A DNA stretch of 64,000 bases, taken from assembly GCA_019828565.1 (NCBI GenBank), contig JAHDYR010000045.1, positions 1 through 64,000 of the forward strand, given 5' to 3'. The notes under the pieces were generated by a model, which saw only the letters and a program-made list of their open reading frames with translations, was not told the DNA's origin and did no database searches. Origin of the DNA: Carpediemonas membranifera BICM. Lineage: Eukaryota; Protista; Fornicata. The translations under genes and the position numbers were made by a program. Of this stretch, positions 8,245 to 62,376 are shown in pieces. The first letter of the stretch is position 1, and each line of letters starts with the position of its first letter.

Positions 8245-9708
8245 TCAATATTTACGCCAACGATAGACCCTCCGAGACTGGCGATAGCCACGAGAGTTAT
8301 AATATCTACGATAACGAGGTCGCCACATAGGAGTGCGCCCGAAATTGCGCGGCTTATACCAACGAGGCCCGCGATGAGTAAAAAACTTGGAATGCCAAGT
8401 TGGGCGGAAAGGGCGACGCTCAGACTTCTCCGCGCGACTCTGCTTAAAATCTGCATACCGCGAGATCGCGCGAGGCGCACGATCTAGCTTATGCTGAAGA
8501 CGTTTCGGCTTCTGAAAGTCCGAAACCTTATAGGACAAAGCAAACTTGTCCGGGCGGAAAGCCTCAAACTCATCCAAGCGACGATAACGAAGGTAATCCT
8601 TCAAAATCGCCTTCGTGTTAGGATTGCGCATACTAGCTATTACGCGATCATAGCTACGGCGTGAGGACGGCGGAAGGGTATCGCGGAACTGCAAGCGTTT
8701 CGCAGTAGGGTTGCGGAAAGAGGACGCCCACTTAACGAGATCCTGATTCTCAATCCGGTCGAACTGAGCCCAAAAGGGCTGCAGACGACTAGTCGTACTG
8801 CGAAAATCGGGATGATACAATCGAATGACCTTCACCCATTGTGAAGCGTCATACGGATACTGCAGATGCTTCATCGCATAAGGGAAAAGCGACCTAGGAT
8901 TATGATAACGCGCATTACGAACGCGCGCTGGGGGAGGGACATAAACGCCGGCGAGGCGATCAAACGCCTCGTCGCGCTTTTCAGGAAAGGTAGCCCGGGC
9001 CTTTCGGACAAGGGGAGCAGTCGGTTTCCGCTGGCGAGCAGGAGCGCTCTCTTGCGGACGAGGAGGAGCGTCCGAAGGAGGACGCTGCTCAATGGGACCG
9101 ACCGCAGGCTCAGGAATAGAACGGTGATCGGGCGCGTTCATGATCGGTACTGAGAGATATACATACCCCATGATCGGGTCACGGTAGGAACGCAGCACCT
9201 TACCAGCGTCCTGGTGAACTGTAAAAAAGGCATTACGGTGCTTACCAAGAGTACGCACAATGCCCTGCGCATCACCCAAAACTGGCATAATACGAAGCGT
9301 ATTATGCCCAGGCTGATAAGGCTTCGGGCGCTGGCTGTCGGGAACAGAACTGACAACGTCGCGCAAATAAATTGCGGACTTCAGCCAGCCTTCCTTCAGC
9401 GCAGAATCCTTAGTAGGAACCTCGCGAAACCACTTGCCAAAAGCAAGCTTCGTCGCAGGGTCTCCAGACTTGAAGGCAAGGTCATGAACCGCAGAAAGAG
9501 TATTCATACGAACTTCGCCAGACTTAATGTAGCGAAGTAAATCACCGACGGCCGCATAATCATGCGAGCCAGGGCCAATAGAATCGCCGTACGGGGCAAG
9601 CCCGCCGGCCGACTTCTTATTGGAAAGATAATCGATTACGTCCCCACGTAAATCAGAGTCACTGACATAGGGACGCACAAAAGCACCCCAATCAACGTCA
9701 GATGACAT
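8245..9708 (-). CDS. Viral 487-aa protein with N-terminal parvovirus-type PLA2-like motifs and basic C-terminus
   Basis: GDSIGPGS and SAVHDLAF resemble the Ca-loop (xxGPG) and HDxxY motifs; the tail is Arg/Tyr rich. Confidence 0.55.
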   Translation of the reverse strand: MSSDVDWGAFVRPYVSDSDLRGDVIDYLSNKKSAGGLAPYGDSIGPGSHDYAAVGDLLRYIKSGEVRMNTLSAVHDLAFKSGDPATKLAFGKWFREVPTKDSALKEGWLKSAIYLRDVVSSVPDSQRPKPYQPGHNTLRIMPVLGDAQGIVRTLGKHRNAFFTVHQDAGKVLRSYRDPIMGYVYLSVPIMNAPDHRSIPEPAVGPIEQRPPSDAPPRPQESAPARQRKPTAPLVRKARATFPEKRDEAFDRLAGVYVPPPARVRNARYHNPRSLFPYAMKHLQYPYDASQWVKVIRLYHPDFRSTTSRLQPFWAQFDRIENQDLVKWASSFRNPTAKRLQFRDTLPPSSRRSYDRVIASMRNPNTKAILKDYLRYRRLDEFEAFRPDKFALSYKVSDFQKPKRLQHKLDRAPRAISRYADFKQSRAEKSERRPFRPTWHSKFFTHRGPRWYKPRNFGRTPMWRPRYRRYYNSRGYRQSRRVYRWRKY

Positions 9709-9795
9709 CGCGCAGCAAATGAAACAAAGTAAGCGCCAGGTGCACTACAGCGCACCCTGACGCTCCTCTACCGAGAGGAATAAAAACAAGCACAC

Positions 9796-9918
9796 GACCT
9801 TAAAATGCCGTGTGACGAACTGACAAATCCCGCTAGTAATATTAAGGGCGCTTTTCGTCAGCGGCACTTTAAGGTCATCTTAAAGTGCGCAGACTATGCG
9901 CCCTGCTAGCGGGATTTT
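9796..9918 (-). promoter_or_regulatory. Rolling-circle origin: TAATATTAC on the minus strand (9836..9844) in inverted repeats
   Basis: gtaatatta is flanked by gaccttaaaatgccg..tgacgaa / ttcgtca.cggcactttaaggtc. Confidence 0.85.
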
Positions 9919-9998
9919 CACACACATTTTGATCACATCAAAATGAGACGGATACAAACTCTTGGATCGAGATTTACGCAGTTTAGGTACGGTCAGAA

Positions 9999-10886
9999 AT
10001 GCAAGCAAAGACGTGGTTCCTAACATACCCGCGTTGGAACGCTGAAAGCCCTGTAGACTTCGACACAATCATCCAGGAGCTCGAAAAGGTCCTCGAAAGA
10101 GAGTTCTCGCGCAGCATTGAAGCATACATCATCGCTCGAGAAAAACACAGAGACACGGAGCCGGACAGCAACAATAACCTACACTTCCACGTCTTCTTGA
10201 AGCTAAACAAAAGAATGCAATGGACCGCAAAGACTAGACCGAACGCATGGGACCTATGGGGAAATCACCCCAATGTACAGACCTGCAGATCTCCTGAAGC
10301 AGTAGAAAAATACTGCCAGAAGGACGGCGACTTCGTCGCTAAAGGGATCGACCTACACGCAAAAGCAAAGAAGAGAAAGGCTTACAACCTAGACTTGTTC
10401 ACGAGAGATCCGATAGAGCTAGTCAAAGACGGCCTCGTGAACCCTGCCCAGTATCTCAACTGCGTGAAAGCACAAGCACACTATAAGCTTCACGCCGAAC
10501 CACAAACGCACGCCGACGACGTGCGCGGAGTATGGATATGGGGAGAGCCAGGGGTTGGGAAGTCACACGCTGCCAGACACGAATACGGTGAGAGTTTGTT
10601 TATCAAAGCCCAGAACAAGTGGTGGGATGGTTACAACGGCGAAAAGGCCGTTATTCTAGACGATCTAGATACACCGGTACTGAACCACTATCTCAAGATC
10701 TGGGCAGATAGATGGTCGTGCTCTGGCGAGGTCAAGGGATCTACAGTCCCACTCAAACACGAAAAGTTCATCGTCACATCCAACTACCCGATCGAACATT
10801 TTACCGAGGGAGATACTGCAATGAACGAGGCGCTGACGAGAAGATTCAAGGTGAGACACCTACAGAAATTAAGAGATAGAATGTAA
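9999..10886 (+). CDS. rep: CRESS Rep (HUH endonuclease + SF3 helicase)
   Basis: Motif I FLTYP, motif II LHFHVF, motif III YCQK, Walker A GEPGVGKS, Walker B ILDDL, motif C VTSN, Arg finger ALTRRF. Confidence 0.97.
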   Translation: MQAKTWFLTYPRWNAESPVDFDTIIQELEKVLEREFSRSIEAYIIAREKHRDTEPDSNNNLHFHVFLKLNKRMQWTAKTRPNAWDLWGNHPNVQTCRSPEAVEKYCQKDGDFVAKGIDLHAKAKKRKAYNLDLFTRDPIELVKDGLVNPAQYLNCVKAQAHYKLHAEPQTHADDVRGVWIWGEPGVGKSHAARHEYGESLFIKAQNKWWDGYNGEKAVILDDLDTPVLNHYLKIWADRWSCSGEVKGSTVPLKHEKFIVTSNYPIEHFTEGDTAMNEALTRRFKVRHLQKLRDRM

Positions 10887-11284
10887 AGACTAACGAACAA
10901 TTTAAGCAATCAAAGATTGGCCTGATATTGGCTAGAGCAGAAGGTATAATAGCCGAGGGGGTTGGCGCATATAGCGCAAAAATGAGGGAAAGGCGTGGGT
11001 TCAAGCGAGAAAAAGAACACCACGAACTATCGAAAAAAGACTTGGGTTCGAACCCAAGACGGATAGGAGAAATGCCACCCGGCTTCGCCGGGCGGACTTT
11101 GGGAAATCCGTATAGTAAATCATATCTAGATGAATCTAGCCGATTTACTGGATACGGCGGGCAGCTAGATTTAATGAAAATCTTGCCCGAAATGATTTGA
11201 TATAATCAAAATGAGACGATTCGCAATCTCGACACTGTCGACACCACGATCTCGCAAAACCCGCAGGGCCATAAGCACCAAGAA

Positions 11285-11511
11285 ATGGTTTGTTTACCGA
11301 TAATGCCCTGCGAGGGCTGGGAGCTATCTAATTAGTAATTACACAGGTACAAGACGTTCACGTTACGTTCTCTCCGCGTTGCGACGATGTAAGTTCCACT
11401 TAGCATATTCTTACGCAGTACACCATCCAGCAGGTTAAAGTCGAGGACCTACCGATCATCCACCCGCGCCATGAAAGCCCGGAGGGGCAGCAGCTACTGT
11501 CGGACGACTCT
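11285..11511 (+). pseudogene. 5' exons of a gene split by the LINE; continues at 23051
   Basis: ATG, intron 11288..11346, VQDVHVTFSPRCDD, intron 11389..11418, then YTIQQVK...QQLLSDDS. This joins in frame across the TSD to MFSTPPEADDD at 23051. Confidence 0.7.
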
Positions 11512-13948
11512 TCAGTTGAAATGTCCGGTATGGGAAGTTGACGAAACCAACCGGAAAAAGGCCAAAAGCTGGCAATCGGGATTTATCGGATCTCATTGAA
11601 AGCTATTCGAGCTCGAAGCGAGCGACGGTGCCCCGCGGCGCCAGCATCCACCAAATGGTAATTTCAGGACCAAGAGTTCGTCTGCTCTGGGGCACGAGAG
11701 CAGAAATGGGAAGTATTCTCCTAACCCACTAGCCATAGGGCACATTGGGGAAGCAAATTGCTCCCCGGAGGAGATCGCCCGTTGCGAAGCAGGTTAGCGC
11801 CAGAGCGGGCCGGCAGAGGACAACTGGCTGCTCCAGGTGAGGTGCGCACCACCTCACCTGGAGCCCACTCCCCTGCCCTGTATACCTCGCCGTGCGCCAA
11901 GCTATGTCGAGCAACAGATGATCGTCCTCGTGTGCCCAAAAAATGCACAGAGGCAAAAACCACCCAAAAGGGAATAAGTTAGCCTCGGTAGGAAAGCGTT
12001 GACAGAATACACAGTACTCTAACAACAAACAAAACCTACCGCCCATGCTCCTGGGACCCACAAGGGGACCAGACGCAACTAAACGCTCCTCGCACAAACC
12101 CACAAGGGAAATCAACGCGAACAAGCGTACTGCGCCACCTTTATGATTGAAACCCCTACCGTAACCGGTACCCGCAGTAGGCCCCAGAGGCACTGCGACA
12201 CGATTGCCTCAGACAACTTAACTGGGGCCATATGGCAAAGTAACCCGAGAGCACCGGGACCGGCGGCCAATAGGCTCTCACTGGGAGGCCACTGGGCCAC
12301 ACTACTCCGGCGCCCGTGCTCTCATGCCGCCCAAGACCGGGCTTGTGGACGTCATCGCCACGAGAGCCGGGATCGCCGCCCGCCGCCGGCATAGGCAACA
12401 GGGCCACCACAACAGGCCCCCAGTACACCAGCCATACCGGACAACAGACCGGGAGCGCTGAGGGCCCCGTCCACAGCCCCACAAGAAACGCCCAGCCGAA
12501 GCCAAAAGGCATAAACCATCACGGTGTTTACCAGGACTCACAACCTCTTGGGAGTGACGCGACCCAGGAAGGAAACAACCGGGCTGCGACCACAAGATAC
12601 AGGACGAGGGGCGTGAATGGCAACCAGCTGGTGCAGCCGGGCGTCTATGCGAGCACGAAGGCGCTTATAGACCCGCATTTGGCCCCTCAGCTCAGCGTCG
12701 AAACCCCGAGCCGACTTAGACTCGTGGGGACTCAGGTCCTCGTCACGGTAATTCTGAGCCAGGTAGGAAAAAGCAGCGGCACGCTCCCGCCACCGGCTGG
12801 CCAGGACGTCCACCTGGGCAAAATCGTCAGCTATGGTCCGCAGGAAATGCGCCTCCCAACCCCGAGGAGTCGCCGGGCCAGGAGTCGGGGACTCCCGAGA
12901 AGGAGCGGTGAAGCCCCTGCCGCCACAAGGCAAGGGACTACCCTGGGGCCCGGAGGGGAATATGGGATCCCCCGTCGGAGTGCGAAGAGGGCCCTGCTTC
13001 CCGGGAAAGAGGCGGCGCCCCCGAAATCGGAGTCCAGGCCGTACTCGGGCCAAGGACTCGATAGGGATCGGAGTGCATAACCCCTGGTAATGCACCTCCC
13101 CCTCTGGGGACCGCTGGGCAGCGGAGGCGCCGGCCGAATGGCCAGGAGGAGGCGTGAAGGTGGAAGGAGAGATGGAACGGACGCATGGGGAATAAGGGAC
13201 AGCAGCCCCGTGTGGGGCGATGCTCCCTGTCCCTGCAATAAGGTTCCCTTTTGGGTTTTCGCCAGACATGTTTTTGTGTGGAAACAAGGTCCGCAACAAA
13301 CCTCGCATACCTCGCCCCTGAACCATCCGCCCTGAGGAAGGGAAAGGAGCCATACAAGACCAGGACATCGCTGGCTGGCGCCCCTTGGAACCTCCACCAA
13401 ACCTCCTCAAGCCCCTCCAAGAAGCTGGCAAAAGTGCACTTCCCGCCTTTTGCCACTCCAAATGGAAACAGGGGAATATCCCAACAGGGACATGCCAGAT
13501 AGGGAAGAAAGCATGATTTATGGCTTATTCGCCCTTAAGGCTGCACCCAGAAGGGATCTCAGGAAAACCAGAAGGGAAAAAGCAAATACGTCCATTATCC
13601 AGCTCGGCAACGCGATAGGATACGACAAGATTGTAGACCCAGAACAGGGAAGCTTTACAGCAAAGGAAGGCCCAGGGGAGCTCCGGAAAAGCCGGGCCAA
13701 GAAGCTGTTTGCATCACTTCCCCTCCTGAGACGGTACACAAAAGCCGCCCAACAGCCATACTGGCTATTCATTGAAGGGAACCGGCTGGACCTAAGCAGG
13801 CGGAGACACTAAGCCGGCTTCGCCCAGGGTCCCCCAAATTTGTGTTCTCCCCAGAGTCCAGGCGGACTACTCCAAGTACGTAGCACATCCCCACCGGACG
13901 AGCCAGACGACACCAGCTAGTGAGCAACACACCCCATCACTTCTCCCC

Positions 13949-16900
13949 GTGGAGGAGGGCCTTGATCTCGGCCGAATCCATAACCGGGACTTTTCGAGAC
14001 CACGCCACACAATGACCTCGAACAGCTCCCAAAGCGCCCCAGACGCCTTGGATTGCGCAAACACCACCCCAAATGGGATCAAGGAGTCGTTAACGCCACT
14101 GGGCAAGCAACTGGCCACACCGGACGAATGGGACTGCATCAGAGCCTCAGCAGATGCGGCTATTCCCACAAGGGACGTTGCCATGGTCTTCACCAGAGAT
14201 GACGCAACGGACTTCACTGCCCGAACGGGAAAGGTCGCAAGGACGCTCCTCCTAGAGCTCGTGGCAACATCGCTGCAAGCTGCAGGACATTCTTCGATCT
14301 CAGGCAACGGCATCCAGACCAAGTACGGGATGGAGGCTGCAATGTGGCTCCTCCATGCCGCCGGACACGCCATCTCCGCGGGAGCTGCAGCCAGAGGGCT
14401 CCCCCTCACTAGGACGCGAAAACAAGAAGCTCTGGGCCGACCTAGGCCGGGAACTAGCCAAAGGGCAAGGCTACCACGCCCCTCACCCCCCGGAGGGAGG
14501 TTTCCGCAGACCAGACGACACGCCCATCCAGATCTGGACCCAGGGCCCCGTCGAGGAGATCCTCATCTACAGCAGAACCGAGGGTGTGATGAGGCCAGTC
14601 TTCCCACCCCCACCCCTGGAAGAAGAGCCTTCGGCAGCAGAGGCAGACCTGAGGGAGGAGGTCAGAGACCTCATCCAACGGTGGTCAGTCCCCGGCTTCC
14701 CCGAACTCTGGTCGGCATGGGATAAGACCAGGCGTCTCTGGCCCCCACCCGCGAGGATTGCCCGCGAACTGGTGTCTGCCTCCTTTCTGACGCGCAACAT
14801 CACTAACTACTGGCTCACAACGGGGCAGACCCAAGTTATAGAGCCCGTACGGGACGGGGCATCTCATGGAGCCCTGGGTACTAACGAAGAAGAAACCCCC
14901 CTGGGCCCGAGCGGCAGCAGGACTTCCGGCCCTGATGACACACCCACCACGCCAAACAAGGGCACATGCGGGCCCAGCATGGGAGCTAGCCCGCCTCGTT
15001 CCAATATCACCCAACGAGCCAACACCACCAGGCAGTTGATCGCTATGGTGGACTTTGAGGAAGGAAGAGCCAGATCCAACCAAGGAGACGAGGCCATCAT
15101 TTGCGAAGGGGCGGCACTGATTTTCGACCCAGCTAACGAGCAAATCCTCTACTACATGCACGGGATGCTTGGGGAAGACATCACAGTGGATGCCCTGGAC
15201 CAATGTCTGTGGGCCACGCACTACATCCATGGCTGCCCACCAGCTACGTTTGTCGACGTCACCACGGGCAAAGCCCCCAAGGGATACGAAGCAGACTTCC
15301 CCCACGCCAAGCGATGGTGCACCGAGATGGCTACAGAGCTGAAGAGACTGGAAGACGACTCGGGGCCACAGAAGACCCACGTCCACATCGTGGCTAAGGG
15401 AGTCGAGGCTGAGAGAAGCATCCTGACCAGTGAGAAGTTCGTCCCAGACGGGAACCTCCGCACCTGGCTAAGCTTACGCCTCATGGATGAAACTGACCTC
15501 AACACGATCTTCCCCAACATCCTCGACACGCTGACCTGGTTCTACCCCAATAGTGGGGAGAAGAGCCTCACCGGCCTCCCCTCCCGACCCCAGTCCGAAC
15601 TGGGCCGGACCTGGACCAGAAGGTACCAACAGCGCCCGGAGGCAAAATTGGTGTGCCCCTATCACAAGCACGCACCCCACCACTGCCACTGCGCCCTAGC
15701 AGATGTCTCCATATTCTACGCCAGACTAGCAACAGCGTTCTGGATGAGAGACAACCCAGGCTGGGACTGGGGGCAGGTAGAAGCCCACCTCACAGCCCTA
15801 GGAAGCATGCTCATGGGCAGGGAGTCGCCGTACCATGATGAATACAAGGACCTGGCGACCAAAGTCAACGCCAGACACGGCCTCGGCACCGTGGCGGCCG
15901 GTCGCCTAACCCCATTGTCCCAACAAGTCAACCTCTTTGGCACCAAGAACCCCAAACTGGGCCAGATTATCATGACCAACTGGGAGGAAAACGATTTCAG
16001 CTCCGAAAAGGGTATCACCAGAGCCCTGGAAGGAACAGCCGTGATCATCGGAAACCCAGAATCGCTCGCGAGAGTAGGCGAACCAGCGCGACCCATCCTC
16101 CTGGAAATCCACTCGGAGTGGAACGGGCGCGCAGTCCGGCGCATCCCTCCGGCGCGCAAGGGGGTACCCCCTCCCCACACAGTGGGGGCGCACCAGGAGG
16201 ATGATGCATGGCAGACTGGCGGAGGTACTGGATGACGCAAGAAGCTACCCACTCCGTCGGTAACCTGCCGGGAAGGCAGGGCCATCCTGATGTGGCCCGG
16301 CGCCTAGCCAGGAACACTGGAAGACGTGGCAACCGCCCCTGGGAGCTCCCCCCGATAATGGGAACCTGGAGTGAAATCGAACAGCGCTAGATGAGCCCGA
16401 ACGCAGCCGGCAAGTCCGTGGAAGTCTACCTACGCGGCGTCGGTGGGTTCCTAACCCGGCCCAGCTGGTACGGCGAACTCTAGACCCGACCCCGCCCTGG
16501 CGGGTGCCTGAAACATGGCGAGCGGGTCGAGGAAACTCCAGGACCTCCCTAGGGGACCCGGGGGAGAGGGGAAACGTACGGAAGGTCCCTGACAGCAGCG
16601 TGCAGGGCAAGGCTTTGTAGGTGCCAGGCAGACCTGGGACCCAAAGGGCCCCTAAGAGTAAGACCTGGGTTAGCCTAACTTTGGGGGTATTAATGTGGCC
16701 ATGTATAGGATCCCTCTAGCGTACCAGCTAGGCCTTGACGGCCGTTGTTCACGCCCTCTTAGGAAGTGTTAGGTGTGCTCTGTAGAGGTACCAACACGCT
16801 TAGGCGTTCCTCGAAGGGGTGACACAAACTGTGACATTCAGCTTACACAGCAGGACGAGTAGCAGGACACATTAAATTCTTTCTTCTTCTTCGGAGTGGA

Positions 16901-17232
16901 ACGGGCGCCGCCGCGCTGTCCAAGACGGTTTCCCTTGGGCGAACCTGAGGGGGGAGCCCACGGAAATAGACGCGGAAAAGATGCTTACTCTAGACGTCAG
17001 CGACACCAAAACGATGACCCTATCCCAAGCGGCGTCTTTGATGCCCGTCCACAAATTCGACATAGCTGGAGGCCACATGGGCAGAGAAGCCAGGAAGAAG
17101 ATCTTCAACTACTTCACGGAGGTCCCAGCCGACGATCGAGAACTCCTGGCCAACATGTGTGTCGACCCGGAGACAGGCTCCATCAACTTCCTCCCCTCGT
17201 TCCTCCCCCGGGACTGGGGGTATCACGGATGA
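13949..17232 (+). CDS. LINE accessory ORF with DEDDh exonuclease of Maelstrom/arenavirus-NP type; interrupted by 16131..16890, probable frameshift near 14405
   Basis: Motifs IAMVDFE (ExoI), THYIHG, IVAKGVEAERSIL (ExoII-like) and CPYH....HCHCALADV. Removing the nested insert restores the frame into MLTLDVSD...GYHG. Confidence 0.65.
16131..16890 (+). mobile_element. Nested 760-bp retroposed element (SINE-like, or 5'-truncated related LINE)
   Basis: 18-bp TSD tcggagtggaacgggcgc at 16113..16130 and 16891..16908; tail ttaaattctttcttcttct; 3' ~500 nt homologous to the host LINE 3' end. Confidence 0.92.
16393..16870 (+). ncRNA. Conserved structured 3' RNA, copy in the nested element
   Basis: Shares sequence blocks and hairpins with 22518..23010; long-range pair agctggtacg/cgtaccagct. 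Confidence 0.6.
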
Positions 17233-18025
17233 ACCAGCAGAAAGAGGGAAGAGGCGAGTGGGCACCTTGAGGAGCGCCTCCTGGAGAGGCAAACTCGCCC
17301 TGGCGGGCTCAGGCGTGGAACACCCAAAAGGGGGGAAGCCATGGGACACGCTGAACTGTGTTTTCCCGGAAGGCGCCAGCACTAACGCCAAGAACAGACT
17401 GAGGACCGAGAGGAAGCAGGCGCTTCGAACAAAGGTGAGACGAAGGGCTACTGAACTCGCCAAGATGCTCCACAGGAGGACGGAGGTCTACCTGCCGAAT
17501 GGCGGCATAGGGGGCCTATATGGCCCTCCACGCGGGCAAATTGTCACTGAACAACCGCAAAGTAGCAGGACAGAGCGAACAGAGCCCGGGCCCCATCCAA
17601 CTAAGAGCTGTGCCCCCCCCCATACCCCCAACCCATCAGCCAAGACCCGCCAGGTCAGACAGGTGGACCAAGAGGACCTGCAGCCCAAAAGAGCACGACA
17701 GGAGGACACCGACCTGGGCAGAGGCATAGCGGCCCTGCTGGACCAAGCCATGGCCCGGCGAGAAGCAGAGGTCAGACAACAGCTGGAAGAAGCTGCAGCC
17801 AGAACCATCAACGAGCTCAAGGCCAAAAGCCAGGAGCTGGAGGAAGAACGGGAAGCCCGGAGAGCAGCCCAAGCTGCGTTGGACGAGATGCGGAAGGACC
17901 TCAGGGAGACAACGGAGAAGTGCTCGTCTCTAACCGAAGAGAACGAGGACTTACTCAGCCGCGCGGCCCGACTCTCGGCAACCAACGAAGCCCTCAGCTT
18001 CACCCCTAGCAGCCAAGATGGATAA
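17159..18025 (+). CDS. ORF1-like coiled-coil protein of the LINE
   Basis: Long E/R/A/L heptad-rich C-terminal half, upstream of APE-RT; a Cys/His-rich ORF follows (18174..18449). Confidence 0.55.
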   Translation: MSTRRQAPSTSSPRSSPGTGGITDEPAERGKRRVGTLRSASWRGKLALAGSGVEHPKGGKPWDTLNCVFPEGASTNAKNRLRTERKQALRTKVRRRATELAKMLHRRTEVYLPNGGIGGLYGPPRGQIVTEQPQSSRTERTEPGPHPTKSCAPPHTPNPSAKTRQVRQVDQEDLQPKRARQEDTDLGRGIAALLDQAMARREAEVRQQLEEAAARTINELKAKSQELEEEREARRAAQAALDEMRKDLRETTEKCSSLTEENEDLLSRAARLSATNEALSFTPSSQDG

Positions 18026-18648
18026 CTTCAGGTCTGACCTGAGAAGGAAGAGAGGCGAGGAGAAGGAAGGAGAGTAGAAACAATCATAAGTAAGAGGTGC
18101 AGAGGGTAGTGTGATATAAGTCTGAGCTAAAAGTGTATATATGAACCAGCATGTATGGCCAGGCTGTGACTAGTTGGGCCTTAAAGTCCAAATGGACACC
18201 GGCGAACCATTCCGGCGGGAGCAAAAATGCAACACATTCTTTTTCAACAAACCCCTGTGCCCCACAGGGCCGGGGGCAGGGTTACCAAAAGGTAAAAAGA
18301 GCCCTGCCTGTCCGGCAGGCTGTAACTCCAGCCTTGGGAGGGGCAACAACCACTGTCGCTCCCACCTAAGCTCGTTAGGTAATGGTCCTGCCATGCGGCG
18401 AGGAAGGAAGCTAAGCGGAGACCGGCAGCAATGCCGACAAGCATCGTGAGGCCCCGACTGTGAAAGGGAATGGTATGCCCTAGGCCGGGAACTAAGGGAA
18501 TACAGGCACAAGCCTGCCCAAAAGGAAACGACTGCTCGGTTAGAGGCCTCAGCAACCCACCAAAAGGTACGCCCAAAAAGGGAATGTCTACAAAGAGCAG
18601 ATTAGTGCGCGCAGGGTAACTCCCGCAGTTTATGTCAGAACAACCTGA

Positions 18649-21600
18649 ATGAGAATAATATCGCTAAACAGCGAAGGGCACCTAGCGGGCGCAAACGATT
18701 ACAGCGGATCCATAGCTTTATCCATCCGCAAGAGGATAAGGACTGATGCGATCCTCCTCCAGGAAACCAAGCGGTACGGTAATACCACCATCCCTTGCTG
18801 GGTAGATCTCCAGTACGCCTGTGCAGGAGAGGTCAAGCCATTAGAGGCAACGCGCAAGCGACCCACAAAGGGACTGGCCACACTGATTAGCCCGCACTCC
18901 AAAGCGGAATGGGACGTAGGCGTGTCCGACGGGACGAACCCACGAATCCAAGTAAGCATCCTCAAAGCATCGAGGGCCACGGCAGTCATCAATATCTACG
19001 CTCCCGATAGTGGATGTGCACGACCCGAGATTGAGGAGTTCGACCGGATGCTAGAGCAAACCGTCGCGAACTATGAGGGGTGTGACATCATCATCATCGG
19101 GGACTGGAACAGGAGGCCAGGGAAACTCAGGCAAGCAACTGCGATGACCCTCCAGCGATGGAACCTCACCCCAATAGCACCAACTGCACCGACGTACGGG
19201 ACTAACTCCCGAACGTCCACAATAGACTATGCAGCGGTAACAGGGGGTATCCAAAACCCGGTTGTTAGGGTAATAGACAAGACCACAATCGGGCACTGGG
19301 GGTCGGCACACAAAGCCATAGAGCTCACCTGGGATAGCAACCCGACAGGGAAACCAGAGATATCAAAGAGACTGGAAATCCCACGGATCGATACGTGGCT
19401 GGTCAAACCCAGGAGAACAGGGCCCAAGCTAGAAGAGTGGCCACCACTAGACAGCAAAATACCAGTGGACGAGATGGAGACTCTCATAAGGAAATGGTTG
19501 TCCACCGGGTTTGCTACCTCCAGAAGGCACCCATTCGCTGTAGAAAACCAGGAACGTATCCCTAGTGAGGTATGGGAACGGCTGGCCAAAGCATCCACCT
19601 GGAGCAAAACCGCCGCCAAAGATATCAAAAAGTCCCTCAACGGAGCACTGAGCAGATCATGGAGGACCTTCCAACATGACTGGAATGAGCAGGTTGAGGT
19701 TGGATCCCGTGATGGGTACAAAACGACAAAAAGGATCCTCGCAAACCAAGTGTTCCGCTTCTGGAACGAGAAGCAGCACGCCGGTCTCCCGGTAATGCTG
19801 AAGGCTGGAAACAAGATTCTAGCAAGGCAGAGGGAGATTGCAGACTCCCTCCAGGAGCAGTACGCGAAGGTCAGCTCCGGGAAGGAACCCACCTGGGAAC
19901 CCACCTGGGAAACCGAGCCAAAAACGGACATGGAGGACCATCCGCCATCGCTTGAAGAAGTGACAGCGGCGGTCAAGTCCATAAGGAAGTCCTCGGCCGG
20001 AGGCCCGGACGGGATTATTGGAGATTGTCTGAGGGACCTCCCCGAGTCAGCGTACGAGGCAATCACAATCCTGCTCGCGAAAGTATACGACAGCGGGACC
20101 ATGCCAACCACATGGAAGTATGCAGCGGTGTCGCCTATCCACAAGGTTGGGAAGGACAAGCTCACGCCCAGCTCGTACAGACCGATCTCCCTCACCCCCC
20201 TCCTATACAGAGCCTACGGGAGGATACTGAAATGGCGCCTCAGGCCGACGGTGGAGAAGTTCATCCCCAGAGAGCAAGTTGGGTTCATGAAAGGGAAAAC
20301 TGTAGTGGATCACATAGCCCTCCTAGCCCAACTCCACCAGTCCGGAAACCGTACCAGCGTCCTACTTGACATAGCAAAAGCATATGATACGGTCCCAAGG
20401 GACCTGCTGGTGAACAAGTTGACGCTCATGGGGGGTACACCCAAGACTGACGAGGGCCATCCGAAATACACTTACAGAAACGTACATCTCGGTACGAGGG
20501 GCAAGCACATGGTCCAGAACAAACATGGGGGTCAAGCAAGGATGTGTGGTGGCCCCCACTCTGTTCATTCTCTTCACAGCTAACTGGCTAAGCCAGGCGG
20601 CACTGTACCTCCGGCATAGAGAGATCCCGGACCCCTGCCTCCCTCCAACGGACGATAGGCCCAAAAACTGCCTCATTGCAATGTTTGTAGATGATACAAG
20701 CATCTCAGCCGAGACCCCGCAGCTCGCCGAAGAAGGCACAGACGCAGTGGTCAGGGTAATTGAAGCCCATGGACTCCAGACCAGCCCAGGCAAAAGTGTG
20801 GTGATAAGTACCGACGTAACTGCAGCGGTCAGCATCCAAGGAACTCCCACACTGGCGTCAGACTCAGCAAGGTATCTGGGACTCTGGCTAGCCAGCGGGA
20901 AGAATCCGTTGGCAGCATGCATCAAAATGAAGACGTCACAATCCCGGAAATACCTAGCCCTGGCAGGAGAGCAGGGTGGACCAAAGGATCCACCCCGGCC
21001 GCCACCTCGGAATCCATCCTCAGAACCTTCCTCTGGCCCAAGATCGAGTTCGGGATCGAGATCTGGGGCCAAGCGCTCAGGGGAAGAGCCATCTGGAACA
21101 ACTGGCGCGGCCTAATGGCAGGCACAGGACCAGGGGGAGGAGGAGCCGCCCGTGTACTAATGGGATGGATGTGCTGGGAGGCAGATATGGGGCAGAGAGC
21201 GGTGAGGCTCTATGAGTCTGCGCACGACCCGGACCGTCCGACCCCCCTAGGGAATCTGGACTGGGCGACAGCGGAGAGAGGATCGGTCTTACATCGCCTC
21301 TACCAATGGCGACGGAGCGTCCTCCAGGGCACACAGGAGGAGATGCCCGCCAGGGAAAGAGCAAAGAGGGGAGGCTGTACCCTCACAGCAGAAGAACTAC
21401 TGCACACCGGGAGCCGAACGGACAAAGGGGTGGCAACAGTACTAGCCCCGGAAGTCATCCTCAGCATGCAGCAAGGGAAGAGACCCAAGAAACCAGGAAT
21501 GATCAAGGGTGAGATGATAACCAGACGGGAAGTCAAGAGAGTAATCATGACTGCATCCAACACACTCCCCTCCCCCAGCAACAGTGGCAGAAGCAGAGCC

Positions 21601-22020
21601 ATACTTGGGAGCGCGATCGGCCAGCCCCAGGCCCTCCTGAGCAGGATCAAGCGGTGTTGCCCCCTATGTACCCTGGACTCAGAAGGTGACACCATTACTC
21701 GCCTGTACACTGTCACCAGAACCGCGGCGGAAACCACCAAAATCCTCTCAGAATGGGCATACAACCAGCCCCTGGGAACACAAAGCCACATCATCTGCCA
21801 ATGCAAGGCGGTAGAACGCCCAGAAGGATGGAATGACATCCTGGCGGAGGCGCATCTACGCACACAGTACCACGCCCTAAGGCAAGGGCAGGAGGCGGAG
21901 TGGTACAACTCAAGGGCAATCCTGGAAATGCTCTGGCTCCTCCGCAGCGAGGACCATACCGTCAGAGAGGGACTGCAGAACGGCAGACGTGCCCTTCTGA
22001 ACCTCCGGAAAGACGGGTAA
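18649..22020 (+). CDS. ORF2: APE endonuclease + reverse transcriptase + C-terminal Cys/His motif; two frameshifts (~20435, ~20930)
   Basis: APE: RIISLN, LLQET, INIYAP, IIGDWN, TIDY, SAHKAI. RT: GPDGI, YRPISLT, LDIAKAYD, GVKQG, FVDD, YLG. C-terminal CPLC...HIICQC. Confidence 0.93.
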
Positions 22021-48389: not shown

Positions 48390-48780
48390 TTGCAGATCGA
48401 GGCGGAGCTCGACGCCTTGGTATTTCGCTGCATCCTGCTCGACATGCTTGAGAATCACCAATAAATGTGAGAGACTTAACCCGACCTGGCAGCCACCAAC
48501 TCAGAGCAATCCAAGGCCGAGCCAGCCTCGGTGCCCACCGTGAAGCGGACATGGTCACACTGTCCCAGCTCCATCCCAAGCTCCATCACCAAGAACCCCA
48601 GGAACGGCCAGATCATCATGACGAACTGGGAAGAAAATAAGTTCTGCACTGGAAGGGGGTGCCATCAGAACCCTTGAAGGGGCGGCCATATGATCATAGG
48701 CAACTCTGACACACTCGAACGGGCCGGCACGACTCCTGCTCCTCTAGATCGACTCCGAATGAAGAGAGACGGACGGATAG
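48390..48780 (+). pseudogene. Degenerate relic of the LINE exonuclease ORF
   Basis: caccaagaaccccaggaacggccagatcatcatgacgaactgggaagaaaa aligns with 15941..15991 (TKNP..GQIIMTNWEEN); the similarity continues with indels. Confidence 0.75.
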
Positions 48781-55063: not shown

Positions 55064-55415
55064 AATTTTGACTGATGGTGTCTGGGTTGACATGGGTCTG
55101 ACCGACCCAGACCGATTTTGCTGTGTGCCAGAGGGCTAGCCTCCTGGTCTGCCCTCGCGCACGCCTGGCCCCTCCTCTCCCCTGTGTTGATTTGCCTCCT
55201 TGTTCCCTTGCAGTATCGGTGTGGGGTGTTCATTCGAAAGAAAGAAATGAAAGAAATTTACGTTTGCCTGGTGTCTGGCCCCGGACTGAGCTTGCTTTCC
55301 CATTGTGGCGTTTCCTGTCTCCTTGCTGCCGAGTCATTGAGTTTTGCCAGATAAAACCACCTTTACCTTTTTGCCTAGCATACGGCACAATGTCGACATT
55401 AGCAAGTATGGAGGT

Positions 55416-56807
55416 TCGGAGTTCGAACGCCAAGGTCAAGCGGTGGGCAGACGCTATCGCAGACCTAGATTTCGAGATCAAGCACGTCGCGGGTCTCGAT
55501 AACGGCGCAGCCGACGGACTATCCCGAGTTTACACTCTGCGGACGACGGCGTCACAATCCGACATTAAGGCAGCCCACGAATTCGCAGGCGCCCATCTAT
55601 CGAGGCATATGACGATGGAGAGACTATGGGCTGACAACCTCGTCGTGTCCAGGTCTGCCGTGGATGAATTCGTTTCGGAATGCCCAGTCTGCCAAGTCAC
55701 AGAGAGACCAACAGTCGACTAGCCAGATGGATTATATACCGCTGTTGACGAACCGTTCCGAAGGGTAGCGATCGACACGATGGGCCCGTTTCCTCCGATC
55801 GACGGCATGAAGTACGTGACCGTCATTATCGACATGTGCTCGAGATGGACGGAGCTCGTCCCCGTAGCATCGACCACTGGGAAAGACGCTGCAAACGCAT
55901 TCGTCAACGCATGGGTCCTGAGATACGGCTGCCCGGAGGTACTCCAATCTGACGGTGGACCCGAGTTCCACAATCAGCTCTTCGCGCGTCTCTCTTCAGA
56001 GATGGGGTTCAAGACGCACATAACCACACCGCACCACCCGCAGAGTAACGGGATGGTAGAACGGGCGAACAGAGAAGTCGAGCGCATCCTCATCGCCAGA
56101 AAGTTTCATTTACATGATACTAATTGGCTCCACCATTTACCTGCCGCGCAATTTATTGTTAACTCCTGCCCAAGAGTGGCGACCAGACTGACGCCAGCCG
56201 AAGTAATGTTCGGCCATAACCTCGTCCCTAACACTCTATTTGTCAGCGAGGACCAAACTAAGACCGGCAGGACGCAAGATAACCTGAAGGCGGCCGAGGC
56301 GTGCGTACTGTTAGCCAAGGCGAGAATACAGGCACGCCGAGAGGACGCGCTGGCCAAAGCTACATCATCAAGAAAAGAGCTGCTTTCGCGATTCGTCATG
56401 GTCAAGTATCCCAGCAGACCACCCAACAAGATGTCTCCCGGCTGGAGAGGACCGATGCGCAGAGTCAAGTGCATTAAGAAAGACGGAGTGCCCGTGGCTT
56501 ACATCGTTCAGAACCTCAGCGAAGATCGCAAAATGGGAAGACGATCACCGTGGACTCCGCCAGAGTGAGAAGGTTCAATTCGGGAGGACTATCAGAAGCA
56601 CAAGTAGCGAAGTTGGCTGCCACTAGTGTTGATGAGTTCGAGGTTGACAGAATCTCGGCAGCACGTGGCGCCGGCCCAATGTCCAAGAGAGAATACCTAG
56701 TACACTGGGTTGGGTTCGAAGACGAGGAAGCCTCATGGGAACCGTATGCCAACGTCAAGGATGCAGTGGCGCTGGACGAGTTCCTACAGAGCGAGAAAAG
56801 AACATAG
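55416..56807 (+). mobile_element. Ty3/gypsy pol 3' fragment (RNase H end, integrase, chromodomain) with a stop and a frameshift
   Basis: NGAADGLSR, H..GAH..CPVC, SDGGPEF, NGMVERAN, YLVHWVGFEDEEASWEP; closely related to 62377..63999. Confidence 0.9.
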
Positions 56808-56839
56808 ACCTGCTACTGTATGTACCTGTAAAGGGCAGG

Positions 56840-56936
56840 TGAGGTCAAGCATTTCATTTAATCCTCATCACTGGTAAGTGTTGTGATATAGATAGATTTC
56901 GGTGCATTTTAAGGTAAACAGTTCACGTCCACAACA
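56840..56936 (+). repeat. Putative 97-bp LTR between a pol end and a gag start
   Basis: Preceded by aaagggcagg, bounded TG..CA, and followed by gtaattact exactly as the 39605 LTR is. Confidence 0.65.
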
Positions 56937-56950
56937 GTAATTACTGCAAG

Positions 56951-58072
56951 ATGACTAGGAACGAAGCTCTTAAGAAGCCCATTCTCGATTCTTTCGAGTT
57001 TGGTGCACTCCAGCGCCATCTGTCACGTTGTGTTAGCTGTCCCAATCAGTTCTTTTATGATTGGTCAATGATCGTCAAAGTCAATTTAAAGTTAGTTCAT
57101 CGTTTCCCTTCGGTGTTCCTGTCCCCTGCCCGTCACAGTTATATAACTTTCGATTAAGGCTACTTTCCCGATGAACATTGACGCCCTGTCTAACTTTTTG
57201 GCCCCATGGTTGAATTCGGCTAAGCCGAAATCATGGTACTCGTTCCGAGACAATTACCGTTCTTTTAACGCCCGCACGAACTCCGAAATTCCGATCTTCA
57301 GTCTCATTAGCCAATTGTTATTCAGCTCCTGGAGATGAGTGATCCTGAGCTCCATGCCTTCATCGCAGAAGCGCGCGCGGCACTTGAATCTCCTCGTGTG
57401 CCTGAAGTGGCCGAGGAGAATGTAGGCCAGATCGCTATGGTCGCCGCCGCGCCTGCAGAAGAAGAAGAGGACGAAGACACGTCTGACGACTCCGACTCAT
57501 CCTCTTCCGATGATGACGATGAGCTGGCTCCCCCTCCCGAAGACTGGAATGAGGCTTTTATTGATCGCGTGAACCGCATCTTCGCCCCCCTTGATAAGCA
57601 AGATGCTCTCGACCGGTTCGACGATATCAAGTTCCCCGACGGTAACCTCTACGAGTCCATGCTAACCTACGTGTTCCTTTACTCGCGGATGATTATGAAC
57701 TGCGCGCATGTCCGTCCGAAGGAGTCTTCGTTAGTTCAGAAGTTCCTGACCAACGTGCGCGGAGACCGTCTACGTGAGCGCTGCGCCACCTACAAGGACA
57801 AGCGATCGTTTGAACGAACGGCTCAGGCAGCTATTGCGCAAGCCAGAAAGGCTGAGCAAGCGGAGAGAGAAGGTCGCCGGTCCAAGAGTAAAGGGCAGGC
57901 ATACGTTGACTTTCTCCTCGCAGCTCTGACCCAAGGTAAGCCAAGCCAAGCCTCTGCTCGTCCCCTGTTCCCGATCCGCCTCCTGCAGTGCCCCTCATCT
58001 GCGTTGTACGACACTGGCGCCACGGCCAACTTTATCTCAGAAGAGCTAGTGTCATGGCTGATGCCACTCTAG
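56951..58072 (+). pseudogene. Decayed gag and protease fragment
   Basis: Gag-like acidic and helical region; ALYDTGATANFIS protease motif. Confidence 0.65.
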
Positions 58073-58222
58073 GCTCGATCAGTATTTATTTTTAGCCGAT
58101 ACGATACGGTCCCGGCTGGCCCGCGGCACCGTATCGCAATCTATTAAATACTTCCTCACCAGGTTTTGCTAGCACGCCCCAAAGGCACGGCACAGTTTTA
58201 AAACTAGTCCACAACAACCACC

Positions 58223-60416
58223 ATGTTCAGCAATATCAGCACCAGCAATTTCCCTAAGCTCCGCGAGCTCACCCGCTCCGGGGTGAAAGCCTATCGCCAA
58301 GAAGTTGACAGACTGAAAGTCTTCTTCCCCAATGCGAACTACCGAGTCTTCCTTGATGAGACGTATATTGACGCCGTTGAGAGACAGACTGACGCAAAAA
58401 TCCAAGACCTCTCTGATGACCAGGTCTCCGAAGCCCTCGACGCTCTTGTTGCTCCCCGCAACGCCGACGAGTGGGTCAGAGAACTCCAGCACACTCGCTG
58501 CACCATGCCCACGCTCGCTCCGCCCAAAGTCACTCGTCGAGGCACCGTCCGTTTATTTGCCACGCAATTCCGCGCCGTCTACGCCTCCCGCACTGAGGTA
58601 GATTTCCCCGATGAGGAACAACCGGAGGAGGACGACACCGATGACGATGACGACGAGAAGGTCGACAAGCCTGAGAAGAAGGCCGCCAAGATCTTCATCA
58701 GCAACCTGCGCCCGTACCCCCTACAACGCGCCGTACGCCTGAAGACCGAATTAGCGGTCGCCACCACCCTCTCGCTCGAAGACACCATCACTCTCGCCCT
58801 CGAGGCCGCCGATGAAGAAGACGAGCTTGCCCAGACTGCCCTGATCAAGGGCTACGAGCTCGTTCCCATCAAGCAGAAGAAGGACGCGGACAACGACGAT
58901 GAGGCCCCTTCCAAGCCTAAGAAGCCTGCTGTCAAGAAGAACACCGCACCCCCAGCCCGAGCAAACGACGTCAATCCGGGCAACCGCGCCCCTCCTGCTC
59001 CCTGTGAGAAGTGCGGTGACAACCACTGGAATTCCGAGTGTCCGACTGCCGAGAAGCCTGCCTTCAAACCCAAGTTCACGCGTGACAACGGCCGTCTGCG
59101 CCCCAATCCTCCCCGTAAGGAGCGTGTAGACACAGTCGACGCGCACACCCCCCAGCAGGGCCCGCTCACCCTGAACGGCCATATAAATGGCCTGGAGTAT
59201 CCGATTGTTATTGATACGGGGGCGGGAGTCACATGCGTTTCGAGTGGTTTAGCAGAGCATTTATACCAACGCACGAGCTGCGAAGTCGTCACAGGCAGAA
59301 AGACCTCCGCAGCTGTCGCAACCGGCGACTCATTCACTAGCGACAGATACCTCCGAGTTACCGTTGCCCTGCCCAGGCCCGCGGGCTACGACACTGAGAT
59401 CTCGCTACTGGCCCTCATTATTCCAGGAGATGTGCCAAAGTTCCTATTAGGAACGGACGTACTCCGCAGACTTGGGATCCTCACCGAAGATTCCCTGAGC
59501 CTGTCGTTCCCATCCGATACCGCTGTTTCAGCCGACGACGATGACGATATAGCCGTCGACAACGTTGCACCCTGAGGATATGAAGCAGTAACAGTCCCGG
59601 AGCTCAAGGAGGACATTCTGCCCCTTCTCCGAGAGCATTCACAAGTATTCGAGCCTGAGCTGCCCTCAGAAGGTTCCAAGCTCGATCCTCTCCACATCAG
59701 GCTCACGGATGACGTCCTCATACAGGCGAAGCCACGCCCTATCGCTGATCCAGCTCTCAGAGCGCAAGTACATGCTGAAATCCAGCGCTGGCGCTCGCAA
59801 GGTATCGTTCGAGACTCCGAAGGCCCTTTCTCTGCCCCCCATCGTGATCGTTAAGCACGGCCACAAGTCTGGGAAGATCCGCGTGTGCGTTGACTACACC
59901 CGAATCAATGCGTACATCCAGGATGATCATTTCCCCCTCCCCGACTTACGACTGTTTGCCAGGGAGGCGGCCGGCGCTCAGTATTTCGCCTCGTTAGACC
60001 TGCGCTCAGGTTATCACCAGATGCGAGTCCACCCTGATGATATCGCACTCACAGCAACTGTCACCCCGGACGACTACGTGGAATTCTGCCGCGTACCCTT
60101 CGGAATCAAAACAGCCCCCGCGGCCTTCCAGCGAGCTATGCAGAAAGTCCTCGCACCCGTACTCCACCGAGGCGCGGCGGTTTACATCGACGACATACTG
60201 CTATATGGCCGCACAAAGGCTGAATTCCTCGCTTGTCTCCAAAAGACACTACAACTCCTCAAGGACGCGAACCTACGCCTCAGCGCCGAGAAGTGCACGA
60301 TCGGCAGCCGATCCGTCAAGGTCGTGGGCTTCATCCTCTCCGCTGACGGCATCCGCATCGACCCGGACAGGATCGCCGCCCTCAAGGAGCTCACGGTCCC
60401 CCATGTGCCTCGCTAA
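58223..60416 (+). mobile_element. Ty3/gypsy gag-protease-RT, 3'-truncated, with a stop and a frameshift
   Basis: CEKCGDNHWNSEC, IDTGA, RVCVDY, LDLRSGYHQ, PFGIKTAP, YIDD. Confidence 0.9.
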
Positions 60417-61252
60417 TGCGGAGAATGCTTTTATAGGGAAAGAAGAAGAGAAAACCCTTGTGCCAATAAATGGCTTAAACTGTATAAATGATTAGTGTGG
60501 TCTATGACCACCACACTGCCCCTCCATGCCTGGGTAATAGGCATGACACTCAACGAGTTACGGGGGTTAGGTTGGCCTAGGGTCATCCGTGTTATAGTTT
60601 GGTGCCACCCAAGCTATGCAACGGTCTACTCCATTGGCAGTGGAGTGGGCAACGCCCGACCCGCGGTCTTCCGATACGGAATTATGGTATCACCAACGGT
60701 GACATGGGAATAAAACCCGACAGCTGTATATGATAACGTGGATCCACTGTGTAAGCAATTGCTATGTTACGTGTTAAGATGGTCTTACCAGGGCTTCGCC
60801 GCCCTCATGAACCGCATATAGGGTCCGAACTTACCGACGTCAATGACAGTCAAACGGACGGCTAGGGTTCGCCCGTATTCATAGAGGCTTATCCCTGCCC
60901 CTCCACGGCCTCATATGGCCGTGTCTCGAAAAATATTACGTGTTACGCATGCTTCTAAGTAATTCGAGGGTTGATCTCGGCGTCTAGAAGAATAAGAAGA
61001 AGTACTGTACCATTGGCGCTGAAACTTACGCAGACGCCGAAAAAGGCATTAAGAGGCTCCAAAAGGCCTTCGTTGGCGAGTTTTGGGCCTTTCATTTTTC
61101 CTGGCGCGCTCGTACTTCATTAACAACATCAATCGGCTTCCGATGGAGCTAATAGGCTACAGCGCTTAGTAAATAGATGAATTAGCTTGATTTGGCGTCC
61201 TATTACTGCTCTAGGTTTCGTCCTGAAACCGATTGTTCCAAAAGTGCAGAAT

Positions 61253-62334
61253 ATGTCGCCGTCAACTCAGTTGATGTCGGACAACGCCGCCGTAGAAGTA
61301 ATTCTGGATACTATTCGCGCTAAAATCGCCGAAATTGGTGACGAGGAACTCACTAAGCCTCTTGTTTCCGCTCATTCCGCCGTCTGTCGTTCTCTTCGTG
61401 CTCAGACCCGTACGCAACGCAAGCGTTTGGCCACCGGGAACTTGTAAGTAACCAATATCAACAGAATACTCATTCAGACACCGTGTGCAGGCCGCGGAGC
61501 GGGATCACTCGCCCGACAACCGCATCCCACCAGCTACCTCGCGACATACGAGCGGAGGTCACTCGGCGCCTAGCCGGCTACACCAACTCCGTCGAGATGC
61601 CTCTTCAGCGCATCTTCGACGCAATCGAGCAAGGACACCTTCATCAGGCTTCGGTGTACATGGATGTAGTGAAGTGTCGGCAGGTACTCGGCCTCGTGGC
61701 TTTCTGTCAGTTCGCTCTCGCTGGCGTGGTGTCTCACCTTAAGATCCGTCTGCGCCCGACCCTCACTGACGGGGACATCGTGTCGGCCGCCCTTCAGAGT
61801 GGCGATATCAGCCTGACTGGCAATGGGCGTTACTCAGCTGGGCTCGTGGCCGCAGTGCGCGCTGCTGCTAATGTCGGATCTGATACCACGGCTCGTGGTT
61901 ACCTCAACCGGCTCATGATCCTCGTCTTTTCGCCGGACTACTTCAGGGTAGCGCTCTTTGGCATCAGCCGCGGTATCGGTGCACCCATCGCTTTCTGGGC
62001 GATGCTGGTCGACGAGCTGTGCCGCGATGGTCACCTGCCTGCCATCGGGGACGAGATCCATTGGGAGCCTCTCCAGGTCTCTGACCCGGACCGTTACTAC
62101 ACGGTGACGTGTGTTGTCCGCCATGAGTTCCTGAAAACGACTCGTGGACCTGGGACCTTCGCTCTCATACTCCAGTATGAGGGTTACTCAGGCCTCAGCA
62201 TCGTCTGGCTGAACGCCGATCTCTGTCTCGTCCGTTGTGTGCGCGACTATCTTGCTGAGCACGATCTTGAGCGCCACGCTGACGCGTCTTGGTTGGTCGA
62301 GCTGACCGATACCGAGGAGTCGGACGACGAATAA
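61253..62334 (+). CDS. Cluster-related protein with C-terminal chromodomain-like region; 47-nt intron at 61444..61490
   Basis: A GTAAGT...GCAG intron joins two ORFs in frame. YTVTCVVRH...LQYEGYSGLSIVWL...VRDYL is chromodomain-like. The 5' end is homologous to 28528..28613. Confidence 0.65.
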
Positions 62335-62376
62335 ATCTGATGACTTGACGCTGGAGCGATTAGATGTGGTGAAGAT

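Follow-up and report, generated by a model that had tools for sequence, protein, structure and literature searches.

The window, that is, the whole stretch of 64,000 nucleotides of Carpediemonas membranifera DNA analyzed here, harbors an APE-type non-LTR retrotransposon (LINE) whose features are collected in Table 1. In agreement with the earlier note, which had described a LINE bounded by a target-site duplication, the 14-bp flanking sequence has its sole occurrences at 11498 and 23037, an arrangement shown by 0 of 300 resampled 23-kb sequences, and ORF2 yields Pfam matches above or near cut-off for the APE endonuclease (PF03372, PF14529) and for reverse transcriptase (RT; PF00078). The hallmarks of a LINE are completed by an internal 18-bp duplication, two pyrimidine tails and one 5'-truncated copy. 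ORF2 presents two frameshifts, near 20430 and 20990, and no Pfam match to RNase H. Its nearest solved relative is L1 ORF2p (E 4e-10), in a comparison with solved structures that does not amount to a clade placement, and two insensitive searches, which do not imply absence, returned no ORF2 relatives at E 1e-10 or 1e-8.

Table 1. Coordinates of the LINE, its parts and a related fragment in the window
Feature	Position	Strand	Remarks
LINE, APE-RT type	11512-23036	+	~11.5 kb; 14-bp target duplication; (TTTC)n tail
14-bp target-site duplication, 5' copy	11498-11511	+	
14-bp target-site duplication, 3' copy	23037-23050	+	directly 3' of the (TTTC)n tail
LINE 5' region	11512-14011	+	2.5 kb; its short ORFs match neither Pfam nor the family
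ORF1, N-terminal part	14012-14500	+	likely start ATG 14012; frame differs from that of the following part
ORF1, middle part	14505-16130	+	rest of N-domain, low-complexity linker, nuclease, start of post-nuclease domain
Nuclease domain of predicted DEDDh fold, Maelstrom / arenavirus ExoN type, with the ECHC residues of a zinc site	15033-15740	+	
18-bp duplication of nested insertion, left copy	16113-16130	+	
Nested 5'-truncated related LINE	16131-16890	+	760 bp; non-coding 3' end; pyrimidine tail
18-bp duplication of nested insertion, right copy	16891-16908	+	
ORF1, resumption past the insertion	16909-17232	+	in register; ends in PRDWG-type family motif
ORF1, C-terminal part	17233-18025	+	after second frameshift; low complexity, likely coiled coil
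ORF1-ORF2 spacer	18026-18648	+	non-coding
ORF2	18649-22020	+	APE endonuclease, reverse transcriptase, Cys/His residues near C terminus
3' UTR	22021-23036	+	1 kb; ends in (TTTC)n tail
Decayed related ORF1 fragment	48497-48746	+	post-nuclease region only

The 5' region of the LINE may represent an untranslated region or a decayed extra ORF. A hairpin of 35 nt occupies 11830-11864, and two open frames extend over 12274-13080 and 13336-13812, the second with a weak coding signal in a codon-periodicity scan; no relatives of this region were found. No Rfam match was obtained over positions 11000-24000, and two of the related loci described below (L003 and L005) gave only below-threshold miRNA matches.

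An integrated CRESS-DNA-virus-like unit (8248-10883) lies 600 bp upstream of the LINE. It comprises an intact Rep gene of 299 codons (9987-10883, + strand) with Pfam matches to Gemini_AL1 and RNA_helicase, an opposed ORF of 499 codons with an Arg-rich end (8248-9744, - strand) and, between the two ORFs, an inverted repeat (9825-9917); relatives of this Rep, with 32-55% identity, were found at 32 viral-contig loci. Pieces of Ty3/gypsy-like LTR retrotransposons occupy 35735-36906, 39605-44346 and 55102-63999 (protease, RT, RNase H and integrase, as recognized by eye), one of them lying between two identical copies of a 92-nt repeat, at 39605 and 44255. The window also presents three 100%-identical direct duplications (2118/4168, 45577/47098 and 50576/54655, with spacings of 2050, 1521 and 4079 bp), attributable to recent tandem duplication or assembly artefact.

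Organization of ORF1

The nuclease-like domain had been placed in an extra ORF upstream of ORF1 and ORF2; instead, it is the middle domain of a single ORF1 of ~1,080 codons. Read from the ATG at 14012 to the stop at 18025, and with a nested insertion subtracted, this ORF1 spans ~1,079 codons and is interrupted in the window copy by two frameshifts and by the nested 760-bp 3' end of another LINE. The first frameshift falls between about 14353 and 14505, and the upstream frame, open at 13988-14353, aligns with residues 45-163, at the N terminus of the related protein P0004 (38%, E 4e-13). The part of ORF1 that follows the insertion matches P0010 (48% over 33 aa, E 9e-5) and ends, at 17206-17220, in the PRDWG-type motif common to the relatives; the order of the C-terminal part matches that of P0003, P0005, P0008 and P0009, to which it shows no direct sequence match. 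The codon-periodicity scan, whose training set included the portion 15033-16130, revealed one coding track at ~13800-18000 that switches frame near 14400 and again near 17230, and gave no signal within the insertion. Taken together, the N-terminal match to P0004, the in-register resumption and the single coding track indicate that the nuclease ORF and the coiled-coil ORF are pieces of one ORF1, in which Pfam found no RRM or zinc knuckle. The frameshifts of the window copy, four in total, lie in or near G/C-rich runs and may reflect decay or assembly error; the copy is dead as it stands.

The nested insertion matches the 3' UTR of the main LINE (72% over 318 nt) and represents a 5'-truncated copy of a related LINE that transposed into the main one. 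Some 500 nt of non-coding 3' UTR (16380-16890 and 22500-23036) contain long identical blocks common to two diverged subfamilies, which are possibly an RT recognition signal; their folding shows no excess stability with respect to shuffles (z -1.16 and +0.63).

Predicted fold and conserved residues of the nuclease domain

The nuclease motifs that the earlier note had quoted are all present and share a single reading frame at 15033-15740. With residue numbering starting at nucleotide 15024, they place D10 at 15051, E12 at 15057, E28 at 15105, E130 at 15411 and C211 at 15654, followed in the C-terminal half by H214 (15663), H222 (15687), C223 (15690) and D227 (15702). The spaced residue pattern, written from the nuclease ORF itself, occurs in 1 of the 50 window ORFs of at least 200 aa and in 0 of 5000 shuffles of that ORF.

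These residues are conserved in a multiple sequence alignment of 12 rows, in which residue counts take in only the rows covering each position. E12 and E28 are invariant in the 11 rows concerned, D10 is retained by 10 of 11 and E130 by 9 of 10. C211, H214, H222, C223 and D227 occur in each of the 8 rows that extend over the C-terminal half; the truncated row P0011, which has a stray terminal alignment there, was left out of the latter counts, and P0006 and P0012 are near-duplicates. The nuclease residues are likewise retained at locus L001. The retention of the candidate acidic and histidine residues (D10, E12, E130, H222 and D227), previously noticed in the window copy, thus extends to all or nearly all covering homologs. 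The residue that follows the Exo I glutamate, equivalent in position to G392 of the Lassa nucleoprotein (NP), is a glycine in only 2 of 11 rows, the window copy having E instead. Furthermore, ORF1, including the nuclease, is under purifying selection: in the nuclease of L003 and L004 (68% identity, against 49-62% in other ORF1 regions) dN is 0.27 and dS 0.92, and the dN/dS of this single pair is 0.29, slightly below the rest of ORF1 (0.32-0.39).

AlphaFold2 with the 12-row alignment produced a model with pLDDT 76.3 and pTM 0.75, compared to a pLDDT of 35.6 for single-sequence folding. Along the chain the model shows three strands followed by a helix, then a fourth strand and, at the C terminus, another helix, which is the order seen in DnaQ, and the domain is accordingly predicted to have a DEDDh (DnaQ-like, RNase H-like) fold. 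The conserved acidic residues of Exo I, II and III and the histidine (D10, E12, E130, H222 and D227) occupy the expected strand and helix positions of the model, from which we infer the geometry of the active site; the third acidic residue (Exo II) is E rather than D. The ECHC zinc-site residues (E28, C211, H214 and C223) are also conserved and, judging by their order and spacing, would bind zinc.

Structural comparisons, the lists of which are filled by DEDD matches, agree with the DEDDh fold that had been put forward for this domain. The Foldseek matches are DEDD nucleases; Maelstrom entries rank 2nd, 3rd and 19th among them and have the best query TM-score (0.55). VIA-align aligned 999 chains, and the five with the highest scores are all Maelstrom (Z 13.0-14.5, with an rmsd of 3.3 over 177 residues at best), the first of them 1.7 Z ahead of the best chain of another kind (Z 12.8); in a wide structure search the lead of Maelstrom was ~1 Z unit, a near tie (Maelstrom 13.7, ESRP1 12.7, DinG exonuclease 12.6, another Maelstrom chain 12.4). 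Arenavirus NP was absent from the matches listed by Foldseek and by the first VIA-align search and was found in the wide search only, in which Lassa NP scored Z 10.3 (rmsd 3.3, 151 aligned residues) with 21% identity, the highest among the best 50 listed. DNA exonucleases score Z 11-12.8 against the model. The likeness to Maelstrom and arenavirus NP initially perceived in the motifs is supported by Maelstrom as the best structural match (Z 14.5), though by a narrow margin in the wide search, and by the conserved ECHC and catalytic residues.

At the sequence level, the Pfam Maelstrom model (PF13017) matched neither the window domain nor any homolog, and the language-model score of the nuclease to PF13017 (0.85) is a lead only. 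Pfam matches to the nuclease were all below cut-off (such as DUF1932), no match to solved nucleases was found among the sequences of solved structures, and a word-based protein search, viral contigs, phages and prokaryote genomes contributed nothing useful on its relatives. Since it has no Pfam Maelstrom match, we do not file the LINE domain in the Maelstrom family, though it is like the protist Maelstrom nuclease. Its best language-model look-alikes in the ESM Atlas (0.92-0.94) are unnamed clusters of 156-252 aa, mostly from arthropods, and these may be a further unrecognized branch of the nuclease group.

Relatives of ORF1 and their association with APE

Only 10 ORF1 relatives at E 0.001 or better emerged when 1.84 billion representatives were searched exhaustively. 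Five of them, as well as the cluster member P0012, are hypothetical proteins of C. membranifera and the other five are unnamed; the named proteins point to a free-living fornicate host, and the LINE family is likely from anaerobic protists. In the relatives ORF1 is one ORF of about 1,100-1,250 aa, and four of them (1,129-1,250 aa) present the same order of N-domain, linker, nuclease, second domain and low-complexity and coiled-coil tail; the copies across which the catalytic-type residues are kept are only 28-35% identical. A metagenome scan returned 155 pattern matches, 5 of which were confirmed.

The DNA context of the family shows an APE ORF downstream of ORF1, the two separated by a few hundred bases, in L002 (E 3e-22), L003 (2e-9) and L004 (1e-11). 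Association with APE is thus observed in 3 of 3 informative loci in addition to the window, as the contigs of L001 and L005 end within ORF1; this count leaves out P0002, P0004, P0006 and P0008-P0012. The contigs of L002, L003 and L004 end inside APE, and RT is seen in the window copy only. Because an APE ORF follows ORF1 in all three loci that are long enough, the ORF1 nuclease is a family trait, and a family-borne nuclease domain in ORF1 is almost certainly real. The earlier note had taken a diverged relic at 48.4-48.8 kb as a sign of such a trait. The trait itself stands on L002, L003 and L004, but the relic (48497-48746) does not contribute to it: it matches the window ORF1 (49% over 53 aa) and P0012 (80% over 25 aa) in the post-nuclease region, with no match to the nuclease domain.

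Because the nuclease and ORF2 are separated by another 3' UTR with its tail (16131-16890), one could think of two unrelated tandem elements, or of a host gene carried into the LINE on one occasion. Both readings are rejected as extremely improbable: the insertion has its own 18-bp duplication, the frame resumes in register past it, and single, uninterrupted ORF1s (1,233 and 1,129 aa) precede APE in L002 and L003. Neither of the outcomes that the earlier note had named as refuting its reading, a missing DEDDh fold or an ORF lacking from other full-length copies, was encountered.

A pyrimidine tract is observed soon past the ORF1 stop in the ORF1-ORF2 spacers of the window (18026-18648), L002 (6300-6740), L003 (5225-5605) and L004 (4628-4998), preceded in the window, L003 and L004 by a short AAAGTGTA motif. 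Tract and motif could constitute a 3'-end processing signal between the ORFs; a consensus fold of the spacers from three loci gave a covariation term near zero. Upstream of the element in L005, head-to-head arrays of 5-nt repeats, (GGTAA)n / (TTACC)n, at 231-339 resemble fused telomere-like repeats.

Candidate roles of the nuclease and comparison with known systems

In the portions of the literature available to us, DEDD residues combined with ECHC characterize Lassa NP as well as the MAEL exoribonuclease of Entamoeba, an active enzyme (PMC4408791), the ECHC site being reported for both Maelstrom and NP (PMC4408791, PMC7968707), and the residues of the LINE nuclease follow the order of the Lassa NP catalytic residues D389, E391, D466, H528 and D533 (PMC3429428). 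Activity of the Entamoeba MAEL protein was shown on single-stranded RNA (PMC4408791), while Lassa NP digests dsRNA and the RNA strand of RNA:DNA hybrids, dsRNA digestion requiring the glycine after the second acidic residue (PMC3429428). Because copies that share only about a third of their residues have preserved the catalytic ones, the LINE nuclease is very probably active, and by analogy with these enzymes its substrate is probably RNA.

We propose that the ORF1 domain is a Maelstrom-type DEDDh nuclease that would act, as a metal-dependent RNase like the Entamoeba MAEL protein and Lassa NP, as a 3'-5' exoribonuclease on the RNA of the element. ORF1p would coat this RNA as in other LINEs, and the nuclease would degrade element-derived duplex or small RNA, blunting host RNA silencing. 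In LINEs, ORF1p is an abundant RNA-coating product, and a nuclease located there therefore fits the clearance of bulk RNA better than a single integration step. We favor anti-silencing because the nuclease sits in ORF1 and because arenavirus NP shares this layout; as the main role, proposed from position and analogy, we rate it tentatively at somewhat short of an even chance. Against a dsRNA-directed, anti-silencing role count the Lassa-type glycine, present in just 2 of the 11 rows, and the characterized Entamoeba enzyme, which acted on ssRNA in the available account (PMC4408791). Published sources yielded no usable information on RNAi genes of the host.

Serious rivals are found in the replacement of RNase H and in the trimming of the element transcript. 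As an RNase H substitute, the nuclease would trail RT 3' to 5' on the template and remove the RNA of the RNA:cDNA hybrid in target-primed reverse transcription; ORF2 has no RNase H match, Lassa NP cuts the RNA strand of such RNA:DNA hybrids (PMC3429428), and the nuclease would move in the same direction as RT on the template. The location of the domain in ORF1 nonetheless speaks against this role, which we deem unlikely. LINE RNase H is usually fused to ORF2, and most LINEs do without one, which also counts against it. Trimming of the transcript to a defined 3' end for use by RT, with read-through or poly(A) removed, would account for the short pyrimidine tails, in place of poly(A), at the ends of both insertions, is in line with the ~500 nt of 3' UTR common to two diverged subfamilies, and has parallels in the many DEDDh enzymes among the structural matches that trim RNA 3' ends (RNase T, ERI1). 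This role is equally given a low probability; the predicted folding of the 3' UTR does not surpass that of shuffled sequences, and no structural stop was found in it.

Two further readings are weaker. The closest solved structures are animal Maelstrom domains, which are described as inactive RNA binders (PMC4408791), and the E in place of D at the third acidic position, together with an ORF1 that has no RRM or zinc knuckle match, would suit a domain that serves the ORF1 coat mainly in RNA binding or as a chaperone, its catalysis being vestigial. We consider this improbable, given that copies 28-35% identical retain the catalytic-type residues that animal Maelstrom has lost. A DNA 3'-5' exonuclease that proofreads cDNA or trims the nicked target end is more improbable still: TREX1, DnaQ, DinG and exonuclease I do score Z 9-12.8 against the model, but the two characterized ECHC-bearing groups act on RNA in the reports at hand (PMC4408791, PMC3429428), and a proofreader would be expected on the polymerase rather than in ORF1.

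Among known systems, the LINE domain shares with protist MAEL, such as Entamoeba EHI_192630, a DEDDh fold (predicted for the LINE domain), the ECHC site and the catalytic residues, as far as described in PMC4408791 and PMC2628886. It differs in residing in ORF1 rather than in a host gene, in its E at the third acidic position and in the lack of a PF13017 match. With solved animal MAEL it is 10-13% identical, and Maelstrom chains are, by a narrow margin in the wide search, its best structural matches. The arenavirus NP exoribonuclease has in common with it the DEDDh and ECHC residues, the H-C-x-L-x-D ending, 21% structure-based identity and a nuclease fused into an RNA-coating protein, as ORF1p likely is (PMC3429428, PMC7968707, in part). 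In contrast to NP, whose Z (10.3) is lower than that of Maelstrom, the LINE nuclease mostly lacks the dsRNA-linked glycine, its ORF1 has no NP-core match, and its context is a retroelement; no relatives of the nuclease were found in viral contigs.

The nearest precedents are the DEDDy ORF3s of bdelloid retroelements and the esterase ORF1 of CR1, L2 and RTEX, as covered in parts of PMC5408684 and PMC5718144. The former, found in Juno and Vesta LTR elements and in the Penelope-like Athena, are also retroelement 3'-5' exonucleases, a family trait and a DEED variant, with a Cys-His-Cys motif in Vesta2 and Vesta5; they are, however, DEDDy, RNase D-like and encoded by separate ORFs, whereas the LINE nuclease is DEDDh, Maelstrom-like and within ORF1 (PMC5408684). 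CR1, L2 (ZfL2) and RTEX likewise combine a captured enzyme and a coiled coil upstream of APE-RT, but their enzyme is an SGNH esterase rather than a nuclease, and the ORF1 described here, of 1,100-1,250 aa, has two further domains (PMC5408684). Within the mostly open-access literature searched, which does not extend to Repbase, a DEDDh or Maelstrom domain was not found in any LINE, and a prior description is possible (cf. PMC7968707, PMC3985635, PMC2628886, PMC5408684, PMC4408791, PMC3429428, PMC6431247, PMC5718144, bioRxiv 10.64898/2026.05.21.726589).

A predicted Maelstrom-type nuclease in ORF1 defines a new LINE ORF1 architecture. In the accounts available, DEDDh nucleases with an ECHC site have been described from host Maelstrom and arenavirus NP, and this LINE family provides a third setting, a transposon, the kind of element that Maelstrom helps silence. 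The family supplies several intact natural variants of what is likely an active enzyme, and allows testing whether a LINE encodes its own counter-defence or template-removal nuclease. The family is relevant, too, to the unsettled origin of the arenavirus exonuclease. In a broader and rather doubtful scenario, a LINE lineage would have turned a Maelstrom-type nuclease, of the kind that hosts use in transposon silencing, into a nucleocapsid-borne silencing suppressor, converging on arenavirus NP, and its copies may constitute both a third ECHC-DEDDh branch and a vehicle linking cellular Maelstrom with the arenavirus exonuclease.
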